DNA of 50,751 bases from the sequence record MZ826699.1; one strand, 5' to 3'. The notes beneath the pieces were generated by a model that ran no database searches, was not told the origin of the DNA, and saw nothing but the letters and a program-made list of their open reading frames with translations. This document shows, piece after piece, positions 8,791-31,213 of the stretch; the stretch's first letter is position 1, and each line of letters starts with the position of its first letter. The position numbers were made by a program, and so were the translations under genes. The stretch is from Escherichia phage P817.

Positions 8791-9081
8791 CTATCGTTCA
8801 TCTTCTCTGGAGCATCCCTTGCCGCAACCATGGCGACCAACTTCCACGATCCCGACACCGCTTAAGCCGATGTATTCCTGACCAGTGTCCTTATCGGTGA
8901 TGACGTATATCGCTCTGACGTTCTCATATGCCAGTTCATCCCTGAACTCCTGAATCTTCACAACCTGGACGCGATCGCTGACATTCACTGGCATCTTCTG
9001 CCGAGCTTCTGAATCTACACGGGTGCTTCCGAAATCACATCCAGCCAGAGCCAGTGCTGCTAATAAAATTAGTTTCTTCAT
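8791..9081 (-). CDS. putative lipoprotein
   Basis: Signal peptide plus lipobox MKKLILLAALALAGC. Confidence 0.5.
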   Translation of the reverse strand: MKKLILLAALALAGCDFGSTRVDSEARQKMPVNVSDRVQVVKIQEFRDELAYENVRAIYVITDKDTGQEYIGLSGVGIVEVGRHGCGKGCSREDER

Positions 9082-9278
9082 TCGATAATCCTCACTACTT
9101 TCTCTTTGCGATGCGGTGCGCCGGACTTATGCAGCCAGTAGCGAGCCTGGGAAAGCTGGCTTGCATGGGACACTGTAACCCACCAGAACAAAGCCACCCG
9201 TTTTTGGACGGCATACCACTTGACCGGATGACCGAAGGCGTTTGTTGTTTCAATCAATGTGATCCTGAATTTACTCAT
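9078..9278 (-). CDS. hypothetical protein
   Basis: 66-aa ORF. Confidence 0.3.
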   Translation of the reverse strand: MSKFRITLIETTNAFGHPVKWYAVQKRVALFWWVTVSHASQLSQARYWLHKSGAPHRKEKVVRIIE

Positions 9279-9438
9279 CCGAAATTGTACTCCTTAATTT
9301 TCTTTGCCGCTCTCATTATGTCATCCAGGCACATTTTATCATCAAGCAAGTCAGCTAACGCCGCTCCGTCATCACTGCCTGACTCTAGAATCTCGGCGAT
9401 CCTGATTATCGAGATGCACTCATCGTGAGTTAGCTTAT

Positions 9439-9651
9439 TCATAACTTCTCTGCCTCTTCCGCTGCCAGGATAAGCGCCGCAGCTAATTTGCGGGCCGCAT
9501 CAGGTGAGTATTGCATCAGTGTTTGGCAATCTGCGTAACCCTCAGGATCGAAGTCCAGGTTGACAACATTACCGCGAACTGTTCTCATCGTTACACTGAC
9601 CTCAGCTTGGTCAAAGTTAACATCATCAATACGTACAGTTTCCATAATCAT
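9439..9651 (-). CDS. small protein, paralog family member B
   Basis: 70 aa; paralog of 8481..8711. Confidence 0.45.
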   Translation of the reverse strand: MIMETVRIDDVNFDQAEVSVTMRTVRGNVVNLDFDPEGYADCQTLMQYSPDAARKLAAALILAAEEAEKL

Positions 9652-9715
9652 TTCCTCTTCGTTGTTGATAGGGTAATCATAGCTGACTACCCGATTTATT
9701 GTTTAGCAATTCGTG

Positions 9716-10279
9716 CTATTCACCGTTCAGGAGTGATTTAGCTTTCCGATAAAACTCGACAGCCTTTCTGACCTCATCTGCATCATAGCCATGAATCATG
9801 TCTGAGCTTGCCTGCAATTTGCTATGAGATTTGCGCTCAACCGATCTCCATGGGTCGCACCACTTGTGAATGTCTCTCCCATACATGCCCACCAGGTATG
9901 GATGTGCATATATCTTGTCACCAATAAGGCAAATGATTCCCGCGTCCTGTAGTGATGGTAGGATGTTGTCAATCAGGTTATTCATTACTCCATTACGCTC
10001 GACGAACGGCTGGACCTTTCTGATCGCCTCATATGTTGAGCGAACTCCCACAACGCCTTTTCCATTTGTCGCTTGCTTCCAGATCTTTTCAACCACGACG
10101 CATTGTTCACGATTTAGGTTTGCGCGACGCATAACTTCCACTTCGCACCAGTACTTTTGTGACTGTCGGTATCCGTTAGCATTGATTGCAACTCGTAGTG
10201 GTTCAAGCCCATCTTCCGTAGCAATCTCCATAATCTGCTCATCCGTCAATTTGTCCTCGTTGAAGTCAAACATCCCCAT
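9716..10279 (-). CDS. domain-deleted paralog of the 527-aa P-loop protein (N- and C-terminal segments only)
   Basis: MFDFNEDKL..LRVAINANGYRQSQ and NGKGVVGVRS.YEA.RKV.PF...CLIGDKIY shared with ORF 13772..15355; central P-loop region absent. Confidence 0.55.
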   Translation of the reverse strand: MGMFDFNEDKLTDEQIMEIATEDGLEPLRVAINANGYRQSQKYWCEVEVMRRANLNREQCVVVEKIWKQATNGKGVVGVRSTYEAIRKVQPFVERNGVMNNLIDNILPSLQDAGIICLIGDKIYAHPYLVGMYGRDIHKWCDPWRSVERKSHSKLQASSDMIHGYDADEVRKAVEFYRKAKSLLNGE

Positions 10280-10800
10280 TATTTTGTCTCCTTAATCATT
10301 TCCTGGTACATTTTGATTGCCTTGATGGCCCCTGTAATCTCATCGCCTTCAAACTCAGTCACGGATGGCATCAGCTTGAGTATTTTGACCTTAAAGTCGC
10401 TCACAGCCTTCTCTGCAATCTGGCAGTTTGCCTTCACTCGCTTTCCTGTCTGGATTGCGCCATCAACCAAAGACAGATAAGCACACCGAACCTCGACGTC
10501 ATCACCGAAATCACCATCCTTAATTGAAAGTTTTGCACGAACGTTTGCCTCCTGTATCTCTGGCATCCTGGCTACCGTATTGGCGACATATGACGCCTTC
10601 AGCTTTGCCATACTGTACTTGCCACCTACATCCAGATCCTCACGACTTATGCCTCCTATATCACTAGATGTGAGGCCGTAAACCTGGCGAGCTATTAGAT
10701 GGATTGGGACGTGGTAGCTGCGGTTCTCGGACTTGAGCGCTTGCTCCGCCATGTAGCGGACGACATCGCCCAGGCTTACGCGTTGATTATGATTTGACAT
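10279..10800 (-). CDS. hypothetical protein (first gene of leftward early operon)
   Basis: 173-aa ORF adjacent to AT-rich divergent control region. Confidence 0.5.
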   Translation of the reverse strand: MSNHNQRVSLGDVVRYMAEQALKSENRSYHVPIHLIARQVYGLTSSDIGGISREDLDVGGKYSMAKLKASYVANTVARMPEIQEANVRAKLSIKDGDFGDDVEVRCAYLSLVDGAIQTGKRVKANCQIAEKAVSDFKVKILKLMPSVTEFEGDEITGAIKAIKMYQEMIKETK

Positions 10801-11519
10801 AGATATTACTCCTGATTGGTGGTCTTCGTTAAGATGGGTGCAATACTACCAGCGTGGTTACATGTTATCAAGTGTTATTGATGCAAATGTTCGACTTAGT
10901 TACGTTTTGCGACCTCTCGCCCCAGATATAGCTCAATGTAAAGTCTGCGTATAGTTTGTAGATAAGGATTTTTAGCAAATGGGCCCCTACATGACCTTTT
11001 ATTCCTACAATGTCGTCATATTCCTACAGGTGTAGGAAAATATCATAGAAAACAATCGCAATATCACATATCCACTATCTACATTATCTACATATATATA
11101 TATTAATAATAATAATATAGATAAATGGTTATTATATAAGGATATTTTAATGTAACCATGGCGTAATTCTGCGTGATAAGCGTACACGATTCCTACGGTG
11201 GGCTTCTTCATCTACACGGCGTAACTTTTATAACGCGTATGCGCTAGAAACGTGTGGCGGGAAAATCCTACCAGGCGATCAGGGGATCAGACTTCACCCC
11301 ATCATTCCCCCCATCAATGAATCATTGCTCAATTCGCAACAATCGAAAACATCATTGCATCGGAAGCAATATTGCTGTATGTGCAATAGTCATGATAATC
11401 ATTGCAATAGCTGCAACAATCCATAAATCCAACGAATGGCACTTTTTTCTAATGACCGATCAGTTGTGATTCGCTATTGTTACTCCATCGAAACGAGTGA
11501 AGAGAACTGGAGAAAATAA
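10801..11519. promoter_or_regulatory. AT-rich divergent control region with palindrome TTCCTACAGGTGTAGGAA, direct repeats (ATTCCTACA, ATCTACAT, ATCATTGC x3); candidate early promoters or origin
   Basis: Non-coding, flanked by divergent genes; about 70 bp shares about 80% identity with 30710..30805. Confidence 0.45.
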
Positions 11520-11699
11520 ATGAGCACTGTTAAAATTCATTGCTACGTCGTGATGGCTGAGCCACGCGAGCCGGAATATGACACTCAGGTGCACTGCGTG
11601 TGCCTCAGTGAGCAGATGGCAGAGCAGGTTTGCGAGAAGATGAACGCAACCGACAAGTACAACCAGTACGACTACTACGAAACGGAGCTACAGAAATGA
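11520..11699 (+). CDS. hypothetical small protein (59 aa)
   Basis: Read by eye: RBS GGAGAAAATAA then ATG; ATGA overlap with next ORF. Confidence 0.35.
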   Translation: MSTVKIHCYVVMAEPREPEYDTQVHCVCLSEQMAEQVCEKMNATDKYNQYDYYETELQK

Positions 11700-11905
11700 T
11701 GTTTGACATTGTGCAGTTTATCGGGAGCGGCAACGAGTATCTGATCAGTTGCGATAACTCACAGACCGAAGTGTTCCGCCTGGTTGATGGTTTGCCACTG
11801 CAAACGACCGCGATGGATAGCCAAATCATTGAGTGCGCGTTATTGTCTGGCGGCGCGCGGGTAATTGGTCAGGCGAAAATCACTGTTGAGATTTCACTAA
11901 TTTAA
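11696..11905 (+). CDS. hypothetical protein
   Basis: MMFDIVQF...; in ORF-track frame 11630..11905. Confidence 0.35.
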   Translation: MMFDIVQFIGSGNEYLISCDNSQTEVFRLVDGLPLQTTAMDSQIIECALLSGGARVIGQAKITVEISLI

Positions 11906-11916
11906 GGAATTAACAA

Positions 11917-12153
11917 ATGAGAATTGTTCACGGAGTCATCTACAAGGGCGTAGCGGACGGCAAGACCAGATTCATTACTCCGTCGGGCCGGATGTATGTG
12001 TGGGCCTATGGAGCCTGGCGCTTCTATTATCAGTTCGTCGATTCAACCTATAAACTTATTAGCTCAGCAGTCGGCAAGAAAGGCAGTAAAGTATTCCTGG
12101 CCTCAAGCCGCAAGGTCTTCATGGAAAAAGCGTGTAGCGCTAGATCCGATTGA
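11917..12153 (+). CDS. hypothetical protein
   Basis: 78 aa; RBS AGGAAT upstream. Confidence 0.4.
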   Translation: MRIVHGVIYKGVADGKTRFITPSGRMYVWAYGAWRFYYQFVDSTYKLISSAVGKKGSKVFLASSRKVFMEKACSARSD

Positions 12154-12172
12154 CTACTTTGCCGTTGAGTTC

Positions 12173-12352
12173 ATGGGGAATCGGTTCAGCAAAAGACGGC
12201 TGTTACGCAATGGTGATATTGCCAGGGTTCAGCAAAATGCTGCTGTTGCGTTCGGTAAAGCGGCACGTCAGAACCTGACTGGTTATCAGCCATGCATAAC
12301 GCCGACGCCGTTTTACGTGCATAAGCAGCGACCACCAAAAAGCCGTAAATAG
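12173..12352 (+). CDS. hypothetical basic protein
   Basis: In frame of track ORF 11996..12352; stop TAG lies in intergenic box. Confidence 0.25.
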   Translation: MGNRFSKRRLLRNGDIARVQQNAAVAFGKAARQNLTGYQPCITPTPFYVHKQRPPKSRK

Positions 12353-12430
12353 CACGAATTGCTAAACGAAGCCTCACGGATTGAGGCATAATAATTTCAT
12401 CGAAACGAAGTACACAAAGAGGAAGTAAAA

Positions 12431-12655
12431 ATGTCAGTTAAAGCTCAGAACGTAGTAGCACACATCGAAGCAAAAGGCCGTGCAATCGTCAAGCTGGACC
12501 GCGCCGCAGGCGTAAGCCAAATCACCATTACGCGCCGTGAGTTCGACCGCTACGTTGTTGGCACTCATCCAGGCTCAATCATCCGTAGCCTTACCCGTGC
12601 TGAGATGGTTAAGCTGTTAAACGAAAACTCACTTTATATCAACTCCTGGAGCTAA
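12431..12655 (+). CDS. hypothetical protein
   Basis: 74 aa; strong RBS AGAGGAAG; preceded by box/stem-loop/box module. Confidence 0.5.
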   Translation: MSVKAQNVVAHIEAKGRAIVKLDRAAGVSQITITRREFDRYVVGTHPGSIIRSLTRAEMVKLLNENSLYINSWS

Positions 12656-12657
12656 CA

Positions 12658-12873
12658 GTGCATCAAGATAATTTTCGTGATCGCTATCGTGAAGCTATTG
12701 AGGCCGGACTGAATGAAGATTGGGCGCTCACAGTTTCCTATGGATACGTCGAACTCGACACGGCACTTGGCGAAATGGATATGGACCAGGAAAGCGAAAG
12801 CAACCAGTCAGTAGACGGGATCGGGGATGACTTCGACTACCGCTTAAAATTTGACGACGGAATACCGTTCTAA
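12658..12873 (+). CDS. small acidic protein with SSB-like C-terminal tail (…KFDDGIPF)
   Basis: GTG start 9 nt after GGAG; C-terminus resembles SSB tail DDDIPF. Confidence 0.45.
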   Translation: MHQDNFRDRYREAIEAGLNEDWALTVSYGYVELDTALGEMDMDQESESNQSVDGIGDDFDYRLKFDDGIPF

Positions 12874-12879
12874 GGAATC

Positions 12880-13122: not shown

Positions 13123-13283
13123 TGCTCAAGCCATCTGAGATAAACTACTTCGATCTTGAAGTCATTAGTGCCTATAGCGGAAAGGGATGGCCATGCGGTG
13201 ATTTGTTTAACGAGGATTTGCTTGAGAGCCATGAAACAATGCTCAAAGCGATAGAGAAAGCACGAAATAGCACGAATTGCTAA
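13122..13283 (+). CDS. hypothetical small protein (53 aa)
   Basis: Read by eye; ATGA overlap with previous ORF; stop inside intergenic box. Confidence 0.3.
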   Translation: MLKPSEINYFDLEVISAYSGKGWPCGDLFNEDLLESHETMLKAIEKARNSTNC

Positions 13284-13346
13284 AGCCCTTCGGGGCTTTT
13301 CCTGTATATTGATCTCATCGAAACGAAACACAAAAAGGCAAACAAA

Positions 13347-13700: not shown

Positions 13701-13771
13701 GTAGCATTTTTTGGCAAGCGGTCTTACCATAGGTGCGTTAACATTGGCGCACCAACTAAGGAGTTATTTTA

Positions 13772-15355
13772 ATGTTTGATTTCAACGAAGATAAATTGTC
13801 AATCGATCAGGTCATGGCTGTAGCCGCTGCCGATAACCTGCCACCTCTACGCGTAGCAATCAACGCGAACGGGTACAGGCAAAGCCAGTCATTCTGGAAA
13901 TCCCCAACAGAGATTGACTCAGGCGGTGACAAATATCCGGTAATTTCACTTGGTAACGATTATGATGTCGTTGGTAAACTGTCAAGCAATGCCGCTCGTT
14001 CTGTTCAGTTCCCCGAGTCGTCCGCTTACATGCATTTCCTCGGATGCATATCAGCCGCCATGCTGGGCCGATTTACGGTTGAGTATCACGGAACACAACA
14101 GCCTACCGCGCTGTACGTCGTAACCAGTCAGCCGCCATCGACAGGTAAATCAGCCATCAACTCACTTTCGCTGGCCCCGATGATCGCAGAGACTGAACGA
14201 CTCAACGAGATCCGAAAGCGCGACCGCAAGAAGATTATGGCTAAGCTTTCCGCTCTATCCAAGGAGATGAAGCAGGAGAAATCACCGTCTGATATGGCGG
14301 CTCTGTTTGAGGAGAAAGAGGAGCTTGAAGAAAAACTTGAACGACTCTGTGACATCGTTTTCCCCGTATCCGACACCACGCCGGAAGGTCTTGCGCGAAT
14401 CAACAACCGCCAGGGCAACTTTGCAGTTATCTCGGATGAAGCAACGAGCGTGAACTCACTGTTAGGCATGACCTATGGTGACGGCTCAAAGAAAACGAAC
14501 AGCGAGCTTGTGCTTAAGGCGTGGGATGCTGGTAACGTATCTATCGCCCGTGCGAACGCAGACAATAACATGAGCTTCATTGCGATGGGCTGTATATCTG
14601 TAATTGCACAGGATGAAACAATCAACGCGATCATGAATGCTGGTGCGCGTGGTATCGGTGTGTCAGAACGTTTCTTGCTTGTGCGTGAGAAGTCATTCCT
14701 TGGCGAGCGTGTATTCGTTGACGAAAAAGGCGAATCAACATACGAGCCTATTGATGGCGGACTCAAGGCGGACTACTTTCGTCTGGTCCATGAGATCATG
14801 AGCGAACACGAAGTCAACCTGACAGTGAGCACGTCGGCGATGAAATATCTCAACCGTGCGCGTCAGGATATGGAACCTCACCTTGCGGACGGCGGGAAGT
14901 ATTCACACACAATGCTTCGCGGCGCGCTTGGTAAGTTTGATAAGCAGGCTATCAGGATCGCGGCTGTTCTTCACACTGTGCGTAACTGGTTTAATCCCAA
15001 TGGCGGTAGTCCGAAGAAGTCCAGAGAGATTGAGCTTGATACAATGCAGGAAGCGGTAATTATGTTCCAGGAACTGAGTAAGACTTATCTGTCATCTGCA
15101 AACGCTGCTGGTCATGCTGGCGACCATGCGGAGATGAATAAGCTGATCGATATTCTGATCAAGCAAGGTAAGAACGGGAAAGGCGTTGTAGGTGTCCGAT
15201 CCCTATATGAAGCGGCTCGTAAGGTTAAGCCATTCGAGGGCCAGGCTGGCGTAATGACTCGAATCAAAGACCATCTGATCCCTATGCTTGATGAGAAAAA
15301 CTATACGTGCCTGATTGGTGATAAAATTTACATTAATCCGCGACTGCTGGGGTAA
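13772..15355 (+). CDS. putative replication-associated P-loop NTPase
   Basis: 527 aa; Walker A-like QPPSTGKSA and Walker B-like FAVISDEAT in central region; RBS AAGGAG. Confidence 0.55.
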   Translation: MFDFNEDKLSIDQVMAVAAADNLPPLRVAINANGYRQSQSFWKSPTEIDSGGDKYPVISLGNDYDVVGKLSSNAARSVQFPESSAYMHFLGCISAAMLGRFTVEYHGTQQPTALYVVTSQPPSTGKSAINSLSLAPMIAETERLNEIRKRDRKKIMAKLSALSKEMKQEKSPSDMAALFEEKEELEEKLERLCDIVFPVSDTTPEGLARINNRQGNFAVISDEATSVNSLLGMTYGDGSKKTNSELVLKAWDAGNVSIARANADNNMSFIAMGCISVIAQDETINAIMNAGARGIGVSERFLLVREKSFLGERVFVDEKGESTYEPIDGGLKADYFRLVHEIMSEHEVNLTVSTSAMKYLNRARQDMEPHLADGGKYSHTMLRGALGKFDKQAIRIAAVLHTVRNWFNPNGGSPKKSREIELDTMQEAVIMFQELSKTYLSSANAAGHAGDHAEMNKLIDILIKQGKNGKGVVGVRSLYEAARKVKPFEGQAGVMTRIKDHLIPMLDEKNYTCLIGDKIYINPRLLG

Positions 15356-15358
15356 ATT

Positions 15359-15872: not shown

Positions 15873-15906
15873 AAAAAGGGAGCCTTTCGGCTCCTTTTAT
15901 TTTTTG
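15872..15906. terminator. bidirectional intrinsic terminator (GGAGCC-TTTC-GGCTCC flanked by A7 and T-rich tract)
   Basis: Perfect 6-bp GC stem with U-tracts on both strands between convergent genes. Confidence 0.7.
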
Positions 15907-16283
15907 CGTCGTTCCAGCCAAATTGAAAGAGCAATCATCAGAATGCCAATGAACAGGAATACCAGTCCGGCAATCAGATTACCTTTCGAGTCATCGTTCC
16001 TGATCTCAATCTTATCAGCGATGATGGTGTCAGCCTTGATGCTTGAGGTGCTGACAGACTTACCGTTTGACGTATCAACCTTTCCTACCTTTGAATCTTT
16101 GATAGTGGTGTCGTTGTCGTTTGACTTATCCACCTTTCCGGTAACGCCTACCGTTTGCTTCACGTTCTCAGCCCCAGCCTGCGCACTGATTTCTGGCTTG
16201 CTGCCAATTAAACCAGTCAGCGCAGATGTCGCCGAACAACCTGATAACACGAACATCATTAAAATAAATAGCACCTTTTGCAT
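15897..16283 (-). CDS. unimolecular spanin (T1 gp11-like): lipoprotein with C-terminal transmembrane helix
   Basis: Start at MQKV (RBS GAGGA); lipobox FVLSGC; C-terminal TM LIAGLVFLFIGILMIALSIWL; adjacent to lysis genes. Confidence 0.6.
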   Translation of the reverse strand: MQKVLFILMMFVLSGCSATSALTGLIGSKPEISAQAGAENVKQTVGVTGKVDKSNDNDTTIKDSKVGKVDTSNGKSVSTSSIKADTIIADKIEIRNDDSKGNLIAGLVFLFIGILMIALSIWLERRKK

Positions 16284-16341: not shown

Positions 16342-16806
16342 ATGAACTGGAATGATATTTTTTATTTAAAAGATGGTGTTTTAATGTGGGGTAAAAAAAC
16401 CTCAAGGAGAGTGTCACTAAATTCACCCGCTGGCAGCATACAAAATAGCGGGTATGTAAGCGTAGGCCTTGACGGTAAAAGATATTACGCACATAGAATA
16501 GTGTGGGAAATGCACAATGGAAAAATACCTGACGGTATGTTCATTGATCACATAAATCACATAAGGCACGACAACAGAATAGAAAACCTCAGATTAGTTT
16601 CAAGATCAGAGAATATGAAAAACCAGAGCTTAAGGATTGATAGCACAAGCGGATTTACTGGAGTAACTTACAGGAAAAGGGATAGTGTATGGATAGCTCA
16701 AGATGACGGATCTCATTTAGGTAGTTTCAATTCATTTGAAGAAGCAGTTAAAGCTAGAGAAAGGTATAATTTAATCAATAACTTTCATGAAAATCACGGG
16801 GCTTGA
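16342..16806 (+). CDS. HNH homing endonuclease with AP2-like DNA-binding domain
   Basis: HNH motif HINHIRHDNRIENLRLVSRSEN; AP2-like GFTGVTYRKRDSVW...FEEAVKARERYN; AT-rich, opposite strand to flanking lysis genes. Confidence 0.75.
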   Translation: MNWNDIFYLKDGVLMWGKKTSRRVSLNSPAGSIQNSGYVSVGLDGKRYYAHRIVWEMHNGKIPDGMFIDHINHIRHDNRIENLRLVSRSENMKNQSLRIDSTSGFTGVTYRKRDSVWIAQDDGSHLGSFNSFEEAVKARERYNLINNFHENHGA

Positions 16807-16817
16807 CGCCCCGATTT

Positions 16818-17312
16818 TTATTTTAGTTCAGCTACACAATATTCATATTCGAACGCCCGTCGATTCTTAAGCCCCTTTGACCGCTCTTTCTTTCCGGTCT
16901 TCGGATTCTTAAAGTAAGTCCAGGACCATAGCTGATTGCAAGCCTCAAGTAGTTTACCCTGGTTAGTAAGTCTCAGCATAGTGGAATTACGGTAAGCACC
17001 AGTGCCAACGTTGAAAGTGAAGCTGTACATTGCCGCACGGAAGTGATCCGGCACGTCAACCTTAATCCGCTTATCAACCTCACGCTTGGCGATGTCGATA
17101 TGCTTATATAGCAATGCGTCGCATTCTCTTTTGGTGTAGGTCTTGCCGAGAATAACGTCAGGTCCAGTGATGCCAGCGCACACCGTCCATACTCCGGCAA
17201 TATCCTTATATGGATTGTACTCAACGCCTTCAATCTTCTCAACAAGTGAAGGAGTTAGCGATAAAGCTACACCAAAAGAAATACTAGCAAGCGTCCTGTT
17301 TACGCTCATCAT
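16818..17312 (-). CDS. endolysin, T4/P21-type lysozyme with N-terminal SAR domain
   Basis: E-x8-D-x5-T catalytic spacing ([16 protein letters not shown]); weakly hydrophobic N-terminal [17 protein letters not shown]. Confidence 0.7.
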
Positions 17313-17833: not shown

Positions 17834-17904
17834 GATTGAATCCTCTGTGAGTGAGGTATGAATATAGCGCCTTCCGGCGCTACAGTGTTAGGCAATTCGT
17901 GCTA

Positions 17905-19047
17905 TCAGATGTCGCTCATTTCAGGACGGTAAACGAAGCGACCGACTTCGCCGAACTCCTTGGAGTAGACAATTACCGCCGCCTGGCGATATGAGCGCCA
18001 ACCGCCGCGCGCCGCATAGGCATCTTTCGCGCCCAACTGACCGTGAACCTCATCAATACCCAGCGTGCCTTCTGTGATCGTCTGGTGATGCCAGTGTCCT
18101 GAGTGAGTGTAAATATATTTGCTCGTCCCGAACTCTTCGCGGAAGTCAGTAGCCATTGCCGCCAGGCGAGTATCAGCTTTTTTCATGGTGTGACCATGAG
18201 TGTACCCAAGCAATGTCTTACCCCACTTGGTACGGTGAAGAATCATAGGAGACGTATCAACCGTTACGCGCACCTCACCTTCAAAGTATGCCGCCATTGC
18301 AGCGCGGAGCCAAATCATACCCGCCTGATCATGGTTCCCTTCAATGATCTGGATTTCGACCTCTTCGTGCTTATCCAGCATTAGCGCTACCGCGCGGCGT
18401 ACGGAACGGATTGCAACGTGAACTAGCTTGGCGTATCGACTATCCTGATCCAGTACGTGACCGCTTGCAGGCGTTACTGCGTCCAGGCCATCAGAGTGAA
18501 GGAAGTCACCGCCGATTAACAGGACTGCTTTCTTAGCCTTCGGAGATACGCCGACAGAATAATCAAAGAAGTTTTTCAGCACTTTCTCTGAGATGTCAGT
18601 GCTGTAGTTCTCACCGCATTCATGCTTGTGTGCCATCGCGCCAATATGAAGATCGAATACCGGATAGAGCGCCAGGAGATTTTCATCGTAGTGAGGTTCG
18701 CCAAGGATAGGCTGAGCTGCCGCGCGTGGTAGTTCATCACAGAATGCTTCAATTGCAGCATCCATCATGGCGGCTAACTTTTCCTTGTCCTGATCGGTCT
18801 TAACCCAGCGCACGACCTCGGAACCGTCAGCGCGAATCATGGTTGACGTGCCTTTAACCTGAAAGCCATCTGGCACGTGTACGCTTACGTGTTTATTCCC
18901 GTGGAACTCACCGCGCTTTGCCAGGCGGCTTGAGCGCTGCTCAACAGTTCGAATGTTCATCCCGTATTCCTGGGCAATCTGGCGGAGTGTTTTACCAGCT
19001 TCGCGCTCAGCAATGAATTGTTCGTCAGTGATTTTTTGAATAGCCAT
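17905..19047 (-). CDS. calcineurin-like metallophosphoesterase with N-terminal HTH
   Basis: Motifs DLHIG, GGDFLH, GNHD, GHxH; N-terminal HTH-like KTLRQIAQEYGMNIRTVEQR. Confidence 0.6.
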   Translation of the reverse strand: MAIQKITDEQFIAEREAGKTLRQIAQEYGMNIRTVEQRSSRLAKRGEFHGNKHVSVHVPDGFQVKGTSTMIRADGSEVVRWVKTDQDKEKLAAMMDAAIEAFCDELPRAAAQPILGEPHYDENLLALYPVFDLHIGAMAHKHECGENYSTDISEKVLKNFFDYSVGVSPKAKKAVLLIGGDFLHSDGLDAVTPASGHVLDQDSRYAKLVHVAIRSVRRAVALMLDKHEEVEIQIIEGNHDQAGMIWLRAAMAAYFEGEVRVTVDTSPMILHRTKWGKTLLGYTHGHTMKKADTRLAAMATDFREEFGTSKYIYTHSGHWHHQTITEGTLGIDEVHGQLGAKDAYAARGGWRSYRQAAVIVYSKEFGEVGRFVYRPEMSDI

Positions 19048-19844: not shown

Positions 19845-19914
19845 GGTGATTCCTCGTCTCGTTGGTATGAAAGAAGTATACCCGCGCGGTGGCGGGTATG
19901 TTTAGCAATTCGTG

Positions 19915-20154
19915 CTATTGGTTAAAATCTTCAGGGCAATCTTGCTTATACTCTAGAAGGTCTTTTTTAATAGACTCTCCCCATGAATTTACCGGATTGC
20001 CTTTAACCTCATCAAACGACATGTCGAGAGATCCGGAGAAATTCCACGCATCACCTTTAAACCCTGCCGCCTTAAGCTTTGTGCAAACAATACCTCTAAA
20101 TAAAAGGAACTGACCATCTTCATTTAAATTAACTTTCTTATTCATATTAAACAC
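19915..20154 (-). CDS. hypothetical protein
   Basis: 79-aa ORF, AT-rich. Confidence 0.4.
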   Translation of the reverse strand: MFNMNKKVNLNEDGQFLLFRGIVCTKLKAAGFKGDAWNFSGSLDMSFDEVKGNPVNSWGESIKKDLLEYKQDCPEDFNQ

Positions 20155-20876: not shown

Positions 20877-21149
20877 TTATTTAACCTCGGTAACTTTGCA
20901 GTTATTAACAGCGACGAACCCGCCTACGCTAACTTTTACCTGACTTTCAGTCACGTTGTAAACCGCCTTCCCCAAGAAAGTTTGCAGTTCATAGTGATCG
21001 CCTTCACGCTCAATAACAACGCCCTTGTCTGAAACAATCTGCGACTTGGTTACTGTGAAGGATTCCTTACCGCAATCGTAAAACTTGGTATCTTCTGCAC
21101 AACCTGCCATTGCCACAACTGCCAGTAGAGCGATGATTGACTTTTTCAT
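20877..21149 (-). CDS. putative lipoprotein
   Basis: MKKSIIALLAVVAMAGC signal peptide plus lipobox. Confidence 0.5.
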   Translation of the reverse strand: MKKSIIALLAVVAMAGCAEDTKFYDCGKESFTVTKSQIVSDKGVVIEREGDHYELQTFLGKAVYNVTESQVKVSVGGFVAVNNCKVTEVK

Positions 21150-21215
21150 TTTGTTTTCCTTGGTTGGTTACTTCGTTTCGATGAGGTGATAATACACCAC
21201 CTCACTGATTCGTCT

Positions 21216-21644
21216 TTAGCAATTCGTGCTATTCAGCATATCAGCAACTGCTTTCTTGTATTCCTCCTGGCCGTACGCCACCGCCGCGAACCCGCCACGC
21301 TCTCGGACACGCCGGAGGAACTCTTTCTGCTCCTTGCTGACTGGTTTTGCCTTTCCTTTCCCGCTCTTATTTACTCGCTTCAATTCTATGGCCCCGAACG
21401 GGTATTTACCGAACGGGCCGAGAAGAAATACAAAATCACTAACACCCTTCAATAACCCGCTCTGAGAGTCAACAAGTGCTGAATGCATCGTCTTTACCCC
21501 CTCATTAACGGTGTGCCAGAATAATAGCTCTCCATGCCTAACTTTAGTCCAGGTCACGCAATCGACCTGGTGCTTGTTCTCTGTCCATGTATCCGATTTG
21601 TCTGGAGTGTAATATTCCAGGTAGTCGCCTTTGTCTGTGATCAT
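21216..21644 (-). CDS. VRR-NUC domain nuclease (PD-(D/E)xK)
   Basis: GVSDFVFLLGPFGKYPFGAIELKRVNKSGK...SKEQKEFLRRV pattern; immediately downstream of helicase. Confidence 0.55.
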   Translation of the reverse strand: MITDKGDYLEYYTPDKSDTWTENKHQVDCVTWTKVRHGELLFWHTVNEGVKTMHSALVDSQSGLLKGVSDFVFLLGPFGKYPFGAIELKRVNKSGKGKAKPVSKEQKEFLRRVRERGGFAAVAYGQEEYKKAVADMLNSTNC

Positions 21645-24310: not shown

Positions 24311-24315
24311 CAATC

Positions 24316-24350
24316 AAGGTTGTGCCATAATTGGTGCAACCTTTTTTATT
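24316..24350 (+). terminator. intrinsic terminator (GGTTGTGCC-ATAATT-GGTGCAACC + T6)
   Basis: 9-bp stem with two G-U pairs followed by TTTTTTATT. Confidence 0.5.
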
Positions 24351-24362
24351 GGAGTAAATACA

Positions 24363-25304: not shown

Positions 25305-25399
25305 CAATTACCCGCTACGGAGGGTTTTTTTATGCCTTACGTAATGCTATACTGCACTTTAGCAATTCGTGCTAAACACCAATATAGGAGTTGATTATT

Positions 25400-27901
25400 A
25401 TGGCAATTTATGACTTAGGAACTGCGTCGCTAGCCGCAAATGGCGAGGTGACTGGTATCGGTACAACATGGAAAGCACCTCTTACACTGATTCGAGTTGG
25501 TGCTACCATTGTTTTCAAAACTGAACCAGTACAGATTTACACCATCTCAGAAATTATCAGCGACACTCAGATTAATGTTTACAATCCAAATTCTGAAACT
25601 GTTCCTGCCGGGACTGGTTACGCGATTCTTGCTCACGATGGAATTACCGTTCAGGGGTTGGCTCAGGATGTTGCAGAAACCCTTCGTTACTATCAGTCGA
25701 GTGAGACAGAAGTTGCAGATGCTGTTGATGCATTTAACAATTTTGACTCTGCTGATTTTGAATCAAAGGTAACGCAGGTAAACACGCAGTACGGTGATGT
25801 TGTTACGATTGCAGAACAGGTAAACACGAAGTACGGTGATATTGTTACGATTGCAGAACAGGTTTCAAGTGATGCATCATCATCACAAATTAACGCCACC
25901 AATGCATCATCTTCCGCCGATAGAGCAGAGGCGGCGGCAAACTCTGTGTCTGGAACATTAACTTTAAGCTTCTCCGATGGAGGAACGGTAGAGTCTAAAA
26001 GACAACAGGTTTTATACATCAATGGAAATGAGGTTAAATCTTATGTCTGGACTGGATCATTACCAAAGACTTTTCCAGTCGGTTCAACTCCTGAAACTTC
26101 CGGTGGTGTTGGTTTAGGTGCGTGGGTTATTGTTGGCGACGCATCGCTGCGCAGTGACTTAGCAAAAACAAATGGTGCAGGATTAATCGGAGGTTTATCA
26201 AAACCGATTACGTTCTGGGGTGCTGTAGGTGATGGTGTTACAAATAACACATCAGCATTCAATTCTGCTGAGGATTCACAGTTTAATGATATATACATAC
26301 CTGAAGGCAACTTTAAGGTTGATAATATTACCTTTAATAAACGATATTGGGGTCCAGGGATTGTGGTAATCGATCACAAATCTGATTTCACTGGCGTGGG
26401 AATTAACGACATGACCGTGTCAGGAATATACAATGGACAGCAAGATCTAAATGCAATTGTAAGAATAAAGGAAGCTTCAAATCCTGATAAGCTTGAATTC
26501 AGTACAGACAATGGAGTTACATGGCATGACACGATAGACGTGTACAATCCAATCGATGACAGTGTATCTCCGCAACCAATCGTAATACTTGCAGGCGGGG
26601 TGGATTTTTTCGTAAGTGGATTGAAGATAAGCTTTTCTTCAACCACTGGACATACAGCAAATGACTCATGGTCATTTTTAATTCCTTCCAATCCATCAGT
26701 AATAAACACAGGAAGTGGTAGCATCGTTAAATCAGGAAGCATTATTTTTAATGTTAGTGGAAACAATGACACTAATACTTCCGCTGGAAAAGACTCATTA
26801 GGCGGTGGAAACGTAGGAGCTAACAATACCGCATATGGGTGGAAGTGCTTATACTCAAACACTACAGGATACGCAAATACCGCGTCTGGGATTCAGTCTA
26901 TGGAAAACAATAAGACTGGTAAAAACAACTGTGCATACGGTGCTGATTCTCTAAGAACTAACGTATCTGGTTCTGATAACGTAGCTGTTGGGGTCTTTGC
27001 GTCAGGAGCAAACACAACAGGGTACGGTAACACTGGACTTGGTAACGATGCCAATAGGTACAATGAAACAGGATTCGGAAATACCGCAGCGGGTGTGCAG
27101 GCACTGTACCACAACAAGGCCGGTAATGAGAACACAGCTTTCGGTGAATACGCATTACGCGGCGGAAGTTCCAGTATGCCTACGGGAACATCTGTTCAGT
27201 ATTTCGTGGCTGTAGGGGCTAAAGCTGGTTTCAACGCGTTAGGTAATAACAACACTGCTATCGGATACGAGGCGCTATATGCGGCCTCAGGTGCAAATAA
27301 CGTTGGAGTTGGGTTTGACGCAGGATTCAAAGTTACCGACGGGTCTTTCAATATATTTTTAGGGGCATCGTCAGGCAACGTTACTGGGCAGGCCGAGCAC
27401 GTCCATAACTGTGTTCTTCTTGGTGATAGTACGAAATCAACGGGGAGTAACGCGGTTGCTATCGGTAGCGGGGTAACTGCGGCGCAAAACACGATCGCAA
27501 TCGGCAACAGCTATCACACAGACATTTTCCATTACGGAAATTTAAAGCCGCAATTAGATAACACCTTTAGTATAGGAAGTTCTTCTGCAAGGTACACACA
27601 AGTTTACGCGACCAACGGCACCATTAATACATCTGACGAGCGGTTAAAAACACCACTCGATTTCGACCTGTTAGATGCTGAAAAAAGAGCCGCCGCTGAG
27701 ATAAAAAAACATATCGGTAAATTCAGGTGGTTAGACCATGTTGGTAGTAAAGTGCATTTTGGTGTTGGCGCTCAGGCAGTGGAGCGAATACTAACTAAAA
27801 ATGGACTTAACAGTAACGACTACGCTTTCCTTGTAAAAGAAAATGGTTCTTATGGTATTAACTACGGGGAGTTGGCTATGTTTATATTAATGGCGATTTA
27901 A
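25400..27901 (+). CDS. tail fiber with C-terminal intramolecular chaperone (S74-type) domain
   Basis: N-terminus MAIYDLGTASLAANGEVTGIGTTW; Gly/Asn-rich repeats; C-terminal SDERLK...FGVGAQAVERIL motif; start ATG after AGGAG. Confidence 0.7.
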   Translation: MAIYDLGTASLAANGEVTGIGTTWKAPLTLIRVGATIVFKTEPVQIYTISEIISDTQINVYNPNSETVPAGTGYAILAHDGITVQGLAQDVAETLRYYQSSETEVADAVDAFNNFDSADFESKVTQVNTQYGDVVTIAEQVNTKYGDIVTIAEQVSSDASSSQINATNASSSADRAEAAANSVSGTLTLSFSDGGTVESKRQQVLYINGNEVKSYVWTGSLPKTFPVGSTPETSGGVGLGAWVIVGDASLRSDLAKTNGAGLIGGLSKPITFWGAVGDGVTNNTSAFNSAEDSQFNDIYIPEGNFKVDNITFNKRYWGPGIVVIDHKSDFTGVGINDMTVSGIYNGQQDLNAIVRIKEASNPDKLEFSTDNGVTWHDTIDVYNPIDDSVSPQPIVILAGGVDFFVSGLKISFSSTTGHTANDSWSFLIPSNPSVINTGSGSIVKSGSIIFNVSGNNDTNTSAGKDSLGGGNVGANNTAYGWKCLYSNTTGYANTASGIQSMENNKTGKNNCAYGADSLRTNVSGSDNVAVGVFASGANTTGYGNTGLGNDANRYNETGFGNTAAGVQALYHNKAGNENTAFGEYALRGGSSSMPTGTSVQYFVAVGAKAGFNALGNNNTAIGYEALYAASGANNVGVGFDAGFKVTDGSFNIFLGASSGNVTGQAEHVHNCVLLGDSTKSTGSNAVAIGSGVTAAQNTIAIGNSYHTDIFHYGNLKPQLDNTFSIGSSSARYTQVYATNGTINTSDERLKTPLDFDLLDAEKRAAAEIKKHIGKFRWLDHVGSKVHFGVGAQAVERILTKNGLNSNDYAFLVKENGSYGINYGELAMFILMAI
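25778..25861 (+). repeat. 42-bp tandem duplication inside tail fiber gene (VNTQYGDVVTIAEQ / VNTKYGDIVTIAEQ)
   Basis: Two adjacent near-identical 42-bp units. Confidence 0.8.
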
Positions 27902-28138
27902 AAAACCTACTGAAAAAGTGTTAATCACACTGACAATAACGTGCATCGTAATTGATGCACGTTAAACCTACCTGATAGTTATTATGCCTTCATGACGGTT
28001 CCATGCTCTGAAAAAGCATCTCAACAAGTCAGTTGTCAGTTTTTTCTTTGCGAGTAATTTGAGTTAAGAAGCAGTCAACCTTACTTTCTATTTGGGAGAC
28101 AACATTTGTTTCATTAACTAATTCAACATAATTTTGAC

Positions 28139-28170
28139 ACCCCACTAGCTTCAGTGGGGTTATTTTTATC
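28139..28170 (+). terminator. intrinsic terminator (CCCCACT-AGCTTC-AGTGGGG + TTATTTTTAT)
   Basis: Perfect 7-bp GC stem followed by U-tract. Confidence 0.65.
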
Positions 28171-28171
28171 A

Positions 28172-28618
28172 TCAGAATGGAATGTCATCATCGAATTGGT
28201 TTTGCTGATTCGGCTGCTGCTGACTTTGCTTTTGCTGTTGAGGCTGCTGCCGCTTCTGATTTTGACTCTGCTGCTGCGCTGGTTCGCGCTGGCTGAATTG
28301 CAACTGAGGTCGGATCATTTCGGCGGTTACATAAACAGTGCCGTCATTACCCTGGCGTGACGCCAAGTGAAGCGTGTCGGCAGAAATTGATACAACCTTA
28401 CCTTCCTGGAACGCTTCATCATACCACTGCATAACGTTTTCTTTTGCGAAGAACGTAGCTCGGTAGTTACTGTAAACCGTCTCATCCTCGCCCTGCTGAT
28501 TGCGAATCTTCATGCGTTCTGAAAGTTCAACGGCGTACATTTTCCAACGACCGTTGTTGTTGCTGCCTTCTTTGGTGTATGGCGCTTTGCGGATCTGACC
28601 AGTGATTACGTGTGGCAT
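28172..28618 (-). CDS. ssb: single-stranded DNA-binding protein
   Basis: Gln-rich linker and canonical acidic tail FDDDIPF. Confidence 0.85.
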   Translation of the reverse strand: MPHVITGQIRKAPYTKEGSNNNGRWKMYAVELSERMKIRNQQGEDETVYSNYRATFFAKENVMQWYDEAFQEGKVVSISADTLHLASRQGNDGTVYVTAEMIRPQLQFSQREPAQQQSQNQKRQQPQQQKQSQQQPNQQNQFDDDIPF

Positions 28619-28656
28619 TGTATTTTCCTTTTTGGATGGGGCCGAAGCCCCGTTAA

Positions 28657-29313
28657 TTAGAATTGTTCGATGGATTCAGATTGTACAGGTTCGGACGGTG
28701 CATTTGCAACCTTGTCTTCAACCTTTTGAGTATCGGCCTTTTTTGCTGGCTGGAAACCGCGAGCTCTACCGATGATCAATTCAGCCTTGCGCTTCTGCAA
28801 GTGGTCTTCTGCAATCTTCCACTCAGCCGCGCCGAGTGAACCTTTAGCGCTCTTATAGATTACCTGGAGGTCTTCCAGTTTTTCACAGTTGGTGATCAGT
28901 TTTTTGTAGTCTGCTGCCGTGCGCTTCGCGATTTCTGCGTCGTCATCGCTCTGAGTGATTCCAAGCGCCGCGCACAATGCGTAACGGCGACCGTATGATG
29001 TTGTTGAGCCGTAAGCCTGGGCACTAATCTTCTCGATCGGCATGTTGTACTGGAACGCAAGCCACTCGCCAGAACTGTGAAGTATGAGCGTCTCAATGTG
29101 CATTACCTTTTCGGTTGACGTGTCCAGGTTTGACTGGATAACCATAAGGTCATGCTCTTTTAGCGCTGGTTCAACGGCCTCCAGAACGTCCGTCAGGTTT
29201 GAGTAATGGTTTTTCAGGTGAGTGTTAAATCCTGATTTTTTTGCGATAGCAAACTGCTTTTTAGCTGCAATTAGAGCGGATGAAACATTCGAAAACTTCT
29301 CTGATGTACGCAT
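28657..29313 (-). CDS. Erf-like single-strand annealing protein (putative)
   Basis: 218 aa; located between exonuclease and SSB. Confidence 0.45.
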   Translation of the reverse strand: MRTSEKFSNVSSALIAAKKQFAIAKKSGFNTHLKNHYSNLTDVLEAVEPALKEHDLMVIQSNLDTSTEKVMHIETLILHSSGEWLAFQYNMPIEKISAQAYGSTTSYGRRYALCAALGITQSDDDAEIAKRTAADYKKLITNCEKLEDLQVIYKSAKGSLGAAEWKIAEDHLQKRKAELIIGRARGFQPAKKADTQKVEDKVANAPSEPVQSESIEQF

Positions 29314-29395
29314 TATATATACCTTTGTTTACTTCGTTTGATTTACGGTGATTATAGCAAATCACCGCATTCGTGTTTAGCAAAAAATGCTACGA

Positions 29396-30430
29396 TTAAA
29401 GAATATGCTTAAACTGTTTCATGATCCAGTCAGGGGTCTCAAGCTCTATTTCCGGTTCTCCGTTGTTGTATGAAGGCCACACGTCGTTTTCTTCGCACAT
29501 TGAGAAAGTGTGAATTACGCTCATATACTGCGCACGACCAATCTTAAGCTGATCACCACTCATCCGGTAAGCCATCGGCAGGTAAGGCTCTTTCTTCTCC
29601 TGTGCCAGTAGTCGGACAACTACAGGTCTTGTTTCCTCAAAGCATTTAACGAACAAGTCGCGCTGCAATGCCATCTTGAGATAGTATCCATGATTGAATG
29701 CCAGGCGCGGGAAATCAGTCGGGTTAGCGCTCATTGTCGTTTTGTAATCAGTGATGACGACAATTTCAGGATGAATGTCAGGATCGTAACCCATGCGCCG
29801 GATTGCCTCTGTATCCTTAACGATGTCAACATGGTCAAGTCGCACCTTAACTTTAACGCCACAAATCACGCCAAACAATGAATACTCACGGAATGCAGTC
29901 TCACTGTTCATGCAGGCGTTATGTTCAGGAATCATCTCAAGAACCTGGCGCATACTGACGCAGGCGTCGTAGTCCTCTGCCTTAACCAGCTCCACTCCGT
30001 CTGCCCACGCCTGACATTGTGCGATCATGTCAATCAGCCACATGACGTTAAGGTCTTCACCACAATCAACCATCATTTTAATCAACTCTGGATATTGCTT
30101 GCCGCTTGTACCAGTCAGGCCAAATGATTTTAGTTTCGTTGCCAAGGCCGCTTGGCTTGTGATCACGTTTTCAATCTCGCTTTCTTTCGGTGCGCGGCGA
30201 TACTGGCGTTCAAACAGTGCCTTACTCTCGAAATTGGTATGCGACTGCGTACCGAAGACCAGTGCCTTAGTCGTCGAGTTCATTTCAAACTTCCACGCCG
30301 CAGGGCAAGTACTGTGGATCTTGCTGAGTGACGAGCCTGATACATACTCGGCGGTCCACTCATCTTTGCTGTGGTAAAAGTCGTTGCTCATTTCTTCTGA
30401 CGTGAAGTATTGAAACAGTGGCTTGGTCAT
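29396..30430 (-). CDS. PD-(D/E)xK recombination exonuclease (RecE/YqaJ-like)
   Basis: RLDHVDIV...VVITDYKTT motif typical of RecB-family nucleases; first gene of recombination operon. Confidence 0.5.
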   Translation of the reverse strand: MTKPLFQYFTSEEMSNDFYHSKDEWTAEYVSGSSLSKIHSTCPAAWKFEMNSTTKALVFGTQSHTNFESKALFERQYRRAPKESEIENVITSQAALATKLKSFGLTGTSGKQYPELIKMMVDCGEDLNVMWLIDMIAQCQAWADGVELVKAEDYDACVSMRQVLEMIPEHNACMNSETAFREYSLFGVICGVKVKVRLDHVDIVKDTEAIRRMGYDPDIHPEIVVITDYKTTMSANPTDFPRLAFNHGYYLKMALQRDLFVKCFEETRPVVVRLLAQEKKEPYLPMAYRMSGDQLKIGRAQYMSVIHTFSMCEENDVWPSYNNGEPEIELETPDWIMKQFKHIL

Positions 30431-30970
30431 CTCTTTAATCCTCGTTCGTTGTTGATGCTGGTAACTATACGCGCTTGGTTGCGTTAGTCAAGTGGTTACA
30501 TGTAGATATTTGTAATCACGTGTATGCAATGGCGTCAGTTACATAAAATGGCTATCCAGACCAGCTATAGCTTGATGTAAACGGCGTGTATATCGTGTAT
30601 ACCATTTTTCGCGGAGGGTGCATTGGTGTATGCGTGATTAGATACTGTATGAATATACATATTAGAAATTTATAAGCGGAACACTCTATAGAAGTAGTTA
30701 CACGATATACACAGTAATATATATAATAATAATAATTATAGTAGAAGGTTGATATATATAGATATTTTAATGTAACTATCGCGTAACTAGGCGTAACTGC
30801 GCGTATATCATTTTTCGCGGACGAGATTGCATACATCGAGTTACATCGGTTACGTGTATATAGTTGCATTTTCATACTTGACACCAAAAAGCACGAATTG
30901 CTAAAGCTCAATTAATGGTTAGTGTATAGTTACCTCATCGAAACGAAAAACACTTAATAAGGATTCAAAA
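30431..30970. promoter_or_regulatory. AT-rich divergent control region homologous to 10801..11519
   Basis: Shares TGGTTACATGT and about 70 bp ...AATAATAAT...GATATTTTAATGTAAC... with region 1; internal repeats GCGTAACT x2 and TATATC...ATTTTTCGCGGA x2. Confidence 0.45.
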
Positions 30971-31213
30971 ATGACTAACTTAATCAAACTTTCAATCATC
31001 GCCGCAGCAGCAATCATGATGGTAGGTTGTTCTTCTGGTCCTCGTCCTGATGGTTGGTGTGCAACGCAATCAAACGGAGTGTGCGTGGCTAAATGGAAAA
31101 ATGGTGTGGTTGTTCCAGCTGGTGAAGTTGATGTTCGCTACGCTGGTATTGAATCAAAAGCAGGTGGAGGCTACGGCGGTTCAGTTGCAGATCACGGCTC
31201 TAAGGAGTGGTAA
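30971..31213 (+). CDS. lipoprotein, candidate Cor-like superinfection exclusion protein
   Basis: 80 aa; [20 protein letters not shown] lipobox; next to tail-tip J-like gene region. Confidence 0.45.

Follow-up and report, generated by a model that had tools for sequence, protein, structure and literature searches.

A predicted LptD receptor-binding and superinfection-exclusion module and two unrelated accessory lipoproteins in Escherichia phage P817

The genome sequence of Escherichia phage P817 (record MZ826699.1; the whole stretch of 50,751 nucleotides is hereinafter the window) encodes, next to its J-like tail-tip protein, a small lipoprotein (lipoprotein 3) followed directly by a 320-amino-acid (aa) protein. 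We conclude that these two genes (30971..32177) very probably constitute the known LptD module, i.e., an Rtp45-type superinfection-exclusion lipoprotein together with an LptD receptor-binding protein (RBP), and that two further small lipoproteins of the phage (lipoproteins 1 and 2) are unrelated accessory envelope proteins. The sequence identities behind this reading were computed here, while the way of binding and the mechanism of exclusion that we propose are taken over from the structures determined for Rtp45 and Oekolampad.

Lipoprotein 3 as a predicted Rtp45-type exclusion protein

Over its entire length (residues 1-80 of 80) lipoprotein 3 matches the Pfam family PF24052 'Phage_lipoprotein' with an E-value of 3.8e-40 and 136.2 bits, against a cut-off of 27. 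A phmmer search of the PDB sequences recovered a single entry, 9RPS chain D (E 6.9e-39), which differs from it at two positions within residues 1-58. The entry shows, by cryo-electron microscopy, Shigella LptDE(M) in complex with Rtp45, the lipoprotein that phage Rtp uses for superinfection exclusion (PMC12685063). Lipoprotein 3 is 84% identical to Rtp45 and 88% identical to OzMSK_039, and in the alignment it retains three cysteines of Rtp45, namely the lipid-bearing Cys20 and the disulfide pair Cys30 and Cys38; LptD is the predicted receptor for both. The serine at its +2 position predicts sorting to the outer membrane. Its genomic setting is also that of the PF24052 family: it lies directly upstream of an RBP with the DUF6453 domain, in an operon convergent with gpJ, and this two-gene arrangement (PF24052 followed by DUF6453, facing a J homologue) is common to Rtp (Rtp45/Rtp44) and P817. 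From its sequence, we thus identify lipoprotein 3 as a predicted superinfection-exclusion lipoprotein of the Rtp45 type and a near-orthologue of Rtp45 itself.

The structural report describes a Cys30-Cys38 disulfide in Rtp45 and a hairpin that reaches up the LptD lumen. Extracellular loop 4 (EL4) of LptD is lifted by up to 20 Å in the complex, a state incompatible with RBP binding (PMC12685063). Were lipoprotein 3 to operate comparably, it would be exported and lipidated after infection and anchored in the outer membrane, from where it would bind the LptDE translocon on the periplasmic side, insert its hairpin into the LptD lumen and displace EL4. Phages with LptD-specific RBPs would then be blocked, as would progeny meeting cell debris, and the 320-aa RBP would sit at the tip of the J-like fibre and bind the extracellular face of LptD.

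Two points weigh against this reading. Relative to Rtp45, lipoprotein 3 has an insertion of five residues, rich in Gly, and has diverged in its C-terminal third. Moreover, in the available part of the report the exclusion role of Rtp45 is itself based on the structure and on the clash with the RBP-bound state (PMC12685063). AlphaFold 3 complex predictions are reported there as unreliable for the Rtp45-LptDE pair (PMC12685063).

The partner RBP and the organization of the host-recognition locus

The 320-aa protein matches PF20051 (DUF6453) with an E-value of 4e-137 and aligns over its full length (E 8.3e-66) with chain C of the PDB entries 9RPT, 9RPW and 9RQI, which is the Oekolampad RBP ('tail fiber protein') bound to an open state of LptDE. 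It is 94% identical to OzMSK_038 and 69% identical to the RBP of SH6, a phage predicted to be LptD-dependent. The RBPs of Oekolampad (RBP_Oeko) and FritzHoffmann, two phages listed as experimentally verified to depend on LptD, are 43% and 40% identical, respectively, and Rtp44 39%; Rtp44 and RBP_Oeko are full-length homologues of the P817 protein, yet far more distant in sequence than that of OzMSK. Two LptD mutant strains with small in-frame deletions resist infection by OzMSK (PMC13035648). The same work recognizes LptD RBPs as products of open reading frames (ORFs) that lie downstream of the tail fibre gene and are 930-960 bp long (PMC13035648). The P817 ORF measures 963 bp and, taken together with the full-length homology to 9RPT_C and the close identity to OzMSK_038, this identifies its product as a predicted LptD receptor-binding protein.

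The preliminary description of this DNA had placed lipoprotein 3 in an operon with a Gly/Asn-rich 320-aa ORF near J, and the sequence bears this out. The RBP ORF begins one base past the lipoprotein 3 stop codon and has its Shine-Dalgarno sequence, AAGGAG, within the 3' end of the lipoprotein gene, and J is convergent on the minus strand; the RBP is made up of 13.4% Gly, 10.6% Ser and 8.1% Asn. SU57, Rtp (rtp43) and OzMSK encode homologues of the J-like protein, labelled tail fiber or tail protein in their annotations, and the order of a leftward J facing a rightward lipoprotein-RBP pair is identical in rtp43/rtp44/rtp45 and OzMSK_037-039. A GC-rich hairpin separates the convergent stop codons, and the SU57 record has bidirectional terminators annotated at the matching position. 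An RBP locus downstream of gpJ with a cognate superinfection exclusion protein is a known arrangement (Maffei et al., PMC8594841), restated for the gpJ-proximal RBP/exclusion locus in a 2026 preprint (bioRxiv 10.64898/2026.04.02.716166).

Lipoprotein 3 is 84-88% identical to its counterparts in Rtp and OzMSK, whereas the identities of the partner RBPs span 39% to 94%. Such a difference fits a lipoprotein that grips LptD on its conserved periplasmic face and RBPs that diversify against the loops at the surface. At the DNA level (30971-31420 of the window against Rtp 27480-28040), the lipoprotein 3 gene stays near rtp45 for ~180 nt, followed by a sharp divergence through its 3' end and the RBP gene; SU57, unlike Rtp, is similar to P817 across the whole comparison. 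This suggests a putative mosaic junction at the boundary of the exclusion and RBP genes. Upstream of the operon, 540 bp of AT-rich DNA (30431-30970) separate it from the exonuclease VIII operon without any plausible gene, and in relatives this place is occupied by cargo genes coding for an anti-repressor (vB_Ec-G8) or a DNA methylase (OzMSK).

Relationship to the Cor and Llp exclusion lipoproteins

The preliminary description had likened lipoprotein 3 to the Cor/Llp-type exclusion lipoproteins encoded beside receptor-binding genes. As to function the comparison holds, given the 84% identity to Rtp45 and the predicted LptD RBP as partner; as to family it does not, for the mature domain has no Cor match. 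Cor (T1, phi80, N15) and Llp (T5) are, like lipoprotein 3, small outer-membrane lipoproteins encoded beside receptor-binding genes that neutralize the phage's own receptor from the periplasm. However, they target the TonB-dependent transporter FhuA rather than LptD and share no detectable mature-domain homology with lipoprotein 3. The mechanisms also differ: as published, Rtp45 acts by steric displacement of an LptD loop and not by the long-range allostery of Llp (PMC12685063).

When used at full length, lipoproteins 1-3 all yield weak matches to PHROG Cor profiles (E 0.0016-0.02), but none of the three mature sequences, freed of their signal peptides, matches PHROG 1119 (Cor). Likewise, hhalign aligned the Rtp45 family with T1 Cor only over residues 6-26, i.e., the signal peptide and lipobox. 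The matches are thus driven by the signal peptides, and we therefore rejected Cor membership for all three proteins. That lipoprotein 3 is nevertheless a true Cor-family protein inactivating FhuA could be argued from its genomic place, which is similar to that of cor in T1, from an orthologue labelled 'Cor' in one phage record, and from the sub-threshold match of T1 Cor (T1 29623-29850) to PF24052 (E 0.0035, 17.7 bits against the cut-off of 27). Given the confinement of the similarity to the signal peptide and lipobox, the absence of a Cor PHROG match to the mature protein, and an adjoining RBP of the LptD type rather than the ST31/ST32 FhuA type of T1, we regard this as highly improbable. Indeed, the RBP cassette of T1 (ST32/ST31-like) differs from that of P817 and has no Pfam match, while the neighbour in P817 is DUF6453. 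Where phage records label Rtp45-like or TLS gp60-like proteins 'Cor', this is hence probably an artefact of similarity in the signal peptide and lipobox.

Lipobox proteins across the window

Lipoproteins were sought among the six-frame ORFs of at least 35 aa by combining a regular expression with hydrophobicity, requiring a positive N-terminus, a hydrophobic core and a lipobox. The scan returned lipoproteins 1, 2 and 3, the u-spanin and one antisense ORF inside a real gene, which is probably spurious, and nothing else (Table 1). This agrees with the preliminary description, which had listed three ORFs with a signal peptide and lipobox besides the u-spanin: their coordinates are exact, and the lipobox cysteine is invariant across divergent homologues in all three families. 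Therefore, these signals are conserved features and not chance matches. The strands, left unstated there, are minus for 8791..9081 and 20877..21149 and plus for 30971..31213. Four lipoproteins in a phage of ~50 kb are by themselves no striking enrichment. For none of the proteins did searches with NCBIfam and PADLOC yield a meaningful match.

Lipoproteins 1 and 2 are not paralogues of the exclusion protein. Nor do they belong with the spanins: the o-spanins (Rz1, LysC) and the T1 gp11-type u-spanin are likewise phage lipobox lipoproteins, but lipoproteins 1 and 2 lack a C-terminal transmembrane domain (TMD) and a Pro-rich Rz1-like mature region, and P817 has a u-spanin of its own.

Table 1. 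Coordinates of the lipoproteins, the host-recognition locus and associated elements in the window
Feature	Position	Strand	Details
Lipoprotein 1	8791..9081	-	96 aa; lipobox MKKLILLAALALAG followed by C15; +2/+3 = DF
Lipoprotein 2	20877..21149	-	90 aa; lipobox MKKSIIALLAVVAMAG followed by C17; +2/+3 = AE
Lipoprotein 3 (predicted Rtp45-type exclusion protein)	30971..31213	+	80 aa; lipid Cys20; +2/+3 = SS
Predicted LptD receptor-binding protein, DUF6453	31215..32177	+	320 aa, 963-bp ORF; translationally coupled to lipoprotein 3
GC-rich hairpin, terminator-like	32181..32198		between convergent RBP and J stop codons
J-like central tail fibre / tail-tip protein	32205..35585	-	1126 aa; convergent with lipoprotein-RBP operon
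u-spanin, fourth lipobox protein	15897..16283	-	lipobox LSG followed by C; C-terminal TMD; weak spanin2 NCBIfam match
Signal-anchor-release (SAR)-type GH24 endolysin	16818..17312	-	PF00959, E 2.1e-34; hydrophobic N-terminus; candidate target of lysozyme-inhibitor-like lipoprotein
Conserved promoter/operator-like element upstream of lipoprotein 3	30888..30947	+	box AAAGCACGAATTGCTAAA ... CTCATCGAAACGAA
Promoter/operator-like element directly upstream of lipoprotein 2	21172..21232	-	matches lipoprotein 3 element
Box copy heading small-gene run with lipoprotein 1	9702..9719	-	ATAGCACGAATTGCTAAA
Box ATAGCACGAATTGCTAAA, minus-strand copies	4412-4429, 7961-7978, 9702-9719, 17888-17905, 19901-19918, 21215-21232, 25358-25375, 35590-35607	-	
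Box ATAGCACGAATTGCTAAA, plus-strand copies	12349-12366, 13267-13284, 30888-30905	+	

Lipoprotein 2: a conserved family with a possible lysozyme-inhibitor-like fold

Lipoprotein 2 belongs to phrog_7420 (E 1.3e-34), the family of TLS gp60 and KP36 gp58; the KP36 record itself notes its copy as similar to TLS gp60. By tblastn, homologues occur in 231 phage records, mostly of Klebsiella Webervirus, Tlsvirus and relatives of P817. An exhaustive HMMER search resolved the real relatives into ~8 clusters at 50% identity; the large repeat proteins also recovered by it (P0138, P0142, P0143, P0145) were judged compositional or spurious. In three of the three loci inspected the gene sits between a VRR-NUC gene and a Dam methylase gene, and at the same position T1 has only a terminator. 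This placement is constant despite different receptor modules, namely in P817 (LptD), in LL5 and a Citrobacter Tlsvirus, and in the Webervirus KP36, which argues against the masking of a cognate receptor.

The family invariantly conserves Cys17, Cys26 and Cys84 and, with one exception, has a residue other than Asp at +2, predicting an outer-membrane anchor and one disulfide. In the AlphaFold2 (AF2) model the mature domain is all β, with a pLDDT score (predicted local distance difference test) of ~89-95, and its best Foldseek match is PhiA (probability 0.98, E 0.18, TM-score 0.49). PhiA and PliC are flattened eight-stranded barrels with one disulfide (PMC8334348). The ends of the domain carry similar motifs: KFYDCGKESFTVT...NNCKV in lipoprotein 2, LEYQCDEKPLTVK...NNCQL in E. 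coli MliC and ILYKCGAKDLSVT in Brucella PliC, such that an N-terminal YxCG...[FL][ST]V and a C-terminal NNC are common to lipoprotein 2 and MliC/PliC. Like MliC, PliC and PhiA, lipoprotein 2 may form a ~70-residue eight-stranded barrel whose one disulfide would join the first and last strands between the YxC and NNC ends, and with MliC it also shares the lipoprotein anchoring.

Unlike MliC/PliC, lipoprotein 2 is encoded by a phage, in a replication/methylase operon, and several searches set it apart. None of the 15 family members examined matches the Pfam MliC model at E-values up to 10, and hhalign against the MliC/PliC mature domains gave a probability of 2.8% (P 0.016). The SGxxY loop, which enters the lysozyme active site (PMC8334348), is absent from every family member, the nearest motif being [LMFA]-G-x-A-x-Y. 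Therefore, while the predicted fold is MliC/PliC-like, membership in that family is not established. A profile search of the family alignment against the PDB gave chance-level matches only. As judged from the model, lipoprotein 2 most likely forms a small β-barrel of the MliC/PliC/PhiA type that is stapled by a disulfide and anchored in the outer membrane; by inference, it may bind or modulate a peptidoglycan hydrolase in the periplasm.

A more specific proposal is that lipoprotein 2 is a lysozyme inhibitor with the MliC/PliC fold, which either acts against the muralytic tail proteins of superinfecting phages in a Spackle-like manner or buffers the phage's own SAR endolysin before holin triggering. 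It is, like MliC, a lipoprotein with an N-to-C disulfide staple and the YxC and NNC motifs; it is the first gene behind a promoter-like element (see below) in a middle-region operon, such that it may well be expressed ahead of the lysis genes; and P817 encodes a GH24 SAR endolysin. Against this stand the missing SGxxY motif, the missing Pfam MliC match and the low profile-profile probability, and small β-barrels are a common fold. Furthermore, PhiA, the closest structural match, showed no inhibition in vitro (PMC8334348). On balance we consider an inhibitor role doubtful.

Lipoprotein 1: an inner-membrane candidate with relatives in lysis cassettes

Lipoprotein 1 belongs to phrog_16585, which no Pfam or NCBIfam model matches. 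A profile search recovered at least 420 clusters of related proteins, 90-110 aa in length, encoded by phages and prophages and, in a few instances, in a chromosomal context. In these proteins the signal peptide and lipobox are followed by ~20 variable linker residues and then by a conserved domain, ~60 residues long, with the consensus R..V....F.D.LAY...RGIY.ITD..TGKEYIGVSGIGISE.GSH..GK....DER, of which the C-terminal DER is invariant or nearly so. Among the 121 members read, 115 have the lipobox and 59 have Asp at +2, as does lipoprotein 1 itself. In Enterobacteriaceae, Asp at +2 is the Lol-avoidance signal for retention in the inner membrane, with the +3 residue modulating its strength. In P817 the gene is the fourth in a run of small minus-strand ORFs, its start overlapping the preceding stop (ATGA).

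The AF2 model of lipoprotein 1 has a pLDDT of 78, and a profile search of its alignment against the PDB found chance-level matches only. We considered a GIY-YIG nuclease on account of the motif RGIYVITD..GKEYIGVSG and weak matches to SegE and UzuA; this was rejected as a complete domain with the conserved Tyr, Arg and Glu is lacking: the domain is too short, its Tyr residues vary within the family and there is no nuclease fold, so that the GIY-YIG-like hairpin is a local resemblance only. By its sequence features lipoprotein 1 is most likely an accessory periplasm-facing protein, predicted to be anchored in the inner membrane, and it is unlikely to mask receptors of the outer membrane.

Gene neighbourhoods offer a further lead, drawn from contigs of IMG/VR and assemblies of Klebsiella and Enterobacter. 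In prophages of Klebsiella huaxiensis, K. michiganensis (23 contigs) and Enterobacter ludwigii, a lipoprotein 1 homologue lies in the order holin, endolysin, homologue, i-spanin, in some cases followed by an o-spanin. Across the 64 IMG/VR loci that have an upstream neighbour, 28 place an endolysin directly upstream of the homologue (19 related to SAR GH24, 7 GH19 and 2 soluble GH24 enzymes), and each of these 28 also has an Rz-like ORF, with a TMD at its N-terminus, that overlaps the stop codon of the homologue by 4 nt. The homologue in these cassettes always reads C-D, whereas the o-spanin ORFs, embedded or separate and detected in most of them, carry other +2 residues. We accordingly rejected the homologues as the o-spanins of their cassettes. 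O-spanins go to the outer membrane, while lipoprotein 1 has the inner-membrane Asp at +2. Other members of the family occur in nin regions (Salmonella prophages and the Hafnia phage Pocitis76), in jumbo phages, on a 310-kb contig after a peptidyl-prolyl isomerase gene and, in one case, outside a phage context. The endolysin/lipoprotein/Rz arrangement was not found in the cultured-phage database or in E. coli complete genomes, and E. coli prophages with endolysin and Rz genes of ~80-92% identity have no homologue. Nothing relevant emerged when the literature was searched for lipoproteins encoded between an endolysin and a spanin.

The placement between endolysin and i-spanin suggests a role of the family in late envelope events or lysis rather than in receptor masking. 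Lipoprotein 1 might thus be an inner-membrane-anchored lysis accessory, for instance a regulator of holin, endolysin or spanin, with a lysis-related or late-envelope role. The 28 viral loci with overlapping or nearly abutting frames and three endolysin types, the C-D sorting that contrasts with the non-Asp o-spanins of the same cassettes, and the Klebsiella and Enterobacter prophage examples all favour such a role. However, ~7 kb separate the gene from the lysis cassette in P817, the homologue is missing from the related cassettes of E. coli prophages, other members reside in nin or unrelated contexts, and the protein offers no fold or motif clue; we thus hold the proposal only tentatively. 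Alternatively, lipoprotein 1 might block DNA entry at the inner membrane after adsorption, in the manner of Ltp, Sim or Imm. The predicted inner-membrane anchor with a periplasmic domain, the early-type region in which the P817 gene lies, and the presence of the family in the delayed-early nin region of lambdoid prophages would fit this. Yet lipoprotein 1 has no similarity to any known injection blocker, and late co-expression with lysis genes in many prophages poorly fits an injection block, which leaves this alternative unlikely.

A broader alternative, in line with the suggestion of the preliminary description that the other two could be further exclusion or envelope-modifying factors, takes all three proteins to be receptor-masking exclusion lipoproteins, with lipoproteins 1 and 2 blocking, e.g., FhuA, BtuB or TolC against competing phages. 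All are small and have a signal peptide and lipobox, lipoprotein 2 has a conserved Cys pair like Rtp45, the full-length sequences give the weak PHROG Cor matches reported above, and one Klebsiella phage labels its lipoprotein 2 homologue 'Cor superinfection exclusion protein'. Against it, the Cor matches are lost once the signal peptides are removed. The position of lipoprotein 2 is constant across receptor types, whereas gpJ-proximal loci track receptor type (PMC8594841). Lipoprotein 1 and half its family carry Asp at +2 and are found in lysis cassettes and nin regions, and this inner-membrane signal along with the lysis-cassette clustering argues against the blocking of a cognate outer-membrane receptor. 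Common receptor masking by all three is hence quite improbable, and we favour an exclusion role for lipoprotein 3 alongside accessory roles for the other two.

Repeated promoter-like boxes and other features of the window

An 18-nt box, ATAGCACGAATTGCTAAA, with the inverted repeat TAGCA-N5-TGCTA, is present in 11 copies where 0.06 would be expected (Table 1); one of these lies just upstream of J. Five of the boxes extend to an element of ~75 nt, composed of the box, a variable hairpin, TGTATAnT..ACCTCATCGAAACGAA, a Shine-Dalgarno sequence and AAAATG. These elements lie upstream of the genes starting at 3868 (-), 12431 (+), 13347 (+), 21149 (-) and 30971 (+), the last two being lipoproteins 2 and 3, and an element like that of lipoprotein 3 is also found upstream of rtp45 and the SU57 lipoprotein. 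The spacing of ~21 nt from TTGCTA to TATAGT is not canonical for sigma-70. We interpret the ~75-nt element as probably a phage-specific promoter/operator or a terminator-promoter cassette. As lipoproteins 2 and 3 are both the first genes behind like elements, they are probably co-regulated.

Megablast with three parts of the window recovered the T1-like siphophages CJ19, PH1062, TH21/TH27, vB_EcoM_50EP and ESCO41, at 80-95% identity. The gene order around the LptD module is that of T1 and Rtp, running from primase through lateral fibre, single-stranded DNA-binding protein (SSB), Erf and exonuclease VIII to the host-recognition locus and J. Therefore, the window is essentially one Drexlerviridae genome, that of a T1-like coliphage.

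Two further observations concern other ORFs of the window. A 154-aa ORF (16342-16806, +) lies antisense between the SAR endolysin and u-spanin genes, splitting the lysis cassette; with its HINHIRHDNRIENL motif it looks like a candidate homing endonuclease of the HNH type. A 187-aa ORF (9716-10279, -) and a 527-aa ORF (13772-15355, +) share their N-terminal ~45 residues (MFDFNEDKL...LPPLRVAINANGYRQSQ) as well as a C-terminal block, GKGVVGVRS.YEA.RKV.PF...CLIGDKIY. The former looks like an internally deleted paralogue of the latter on the other strand.

Implications

For the pairing of an LptD RBP with an exclusion lipoprotein, the family, receptor and partner are already known from published work. 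Its value here is practical, in that the terminal receptor (LptD) and the self-exclusion mechanism can be read from the sequence. The potential for discovery lies only in the fold lead of lipoprotein 2 and the lysis-cassette association of lipoprotein 1, both of which represent conserved, uncharacterized families. Lipoprotein 1 may, as a minority possibility, stand for an unrecognized, widespread family that is an undescribed accessory of lysis or late envelope remodelling in phages of Gram-negative bacteria and was moved to an early operon in T1-like phages. Less probably still, lipoprotein 2 might be the first example of a muramidase-modulating lipoprotein with the MliC/PliC fold that is encoded by a phage. 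If either of them controls peptidoglycan hydrolysis or the timing of lysis, it would add a new component to the holin-endolysin-spanin scheme and, if true, would open a route to understanding how the envelope of an infected cell is protected by lytic phages.

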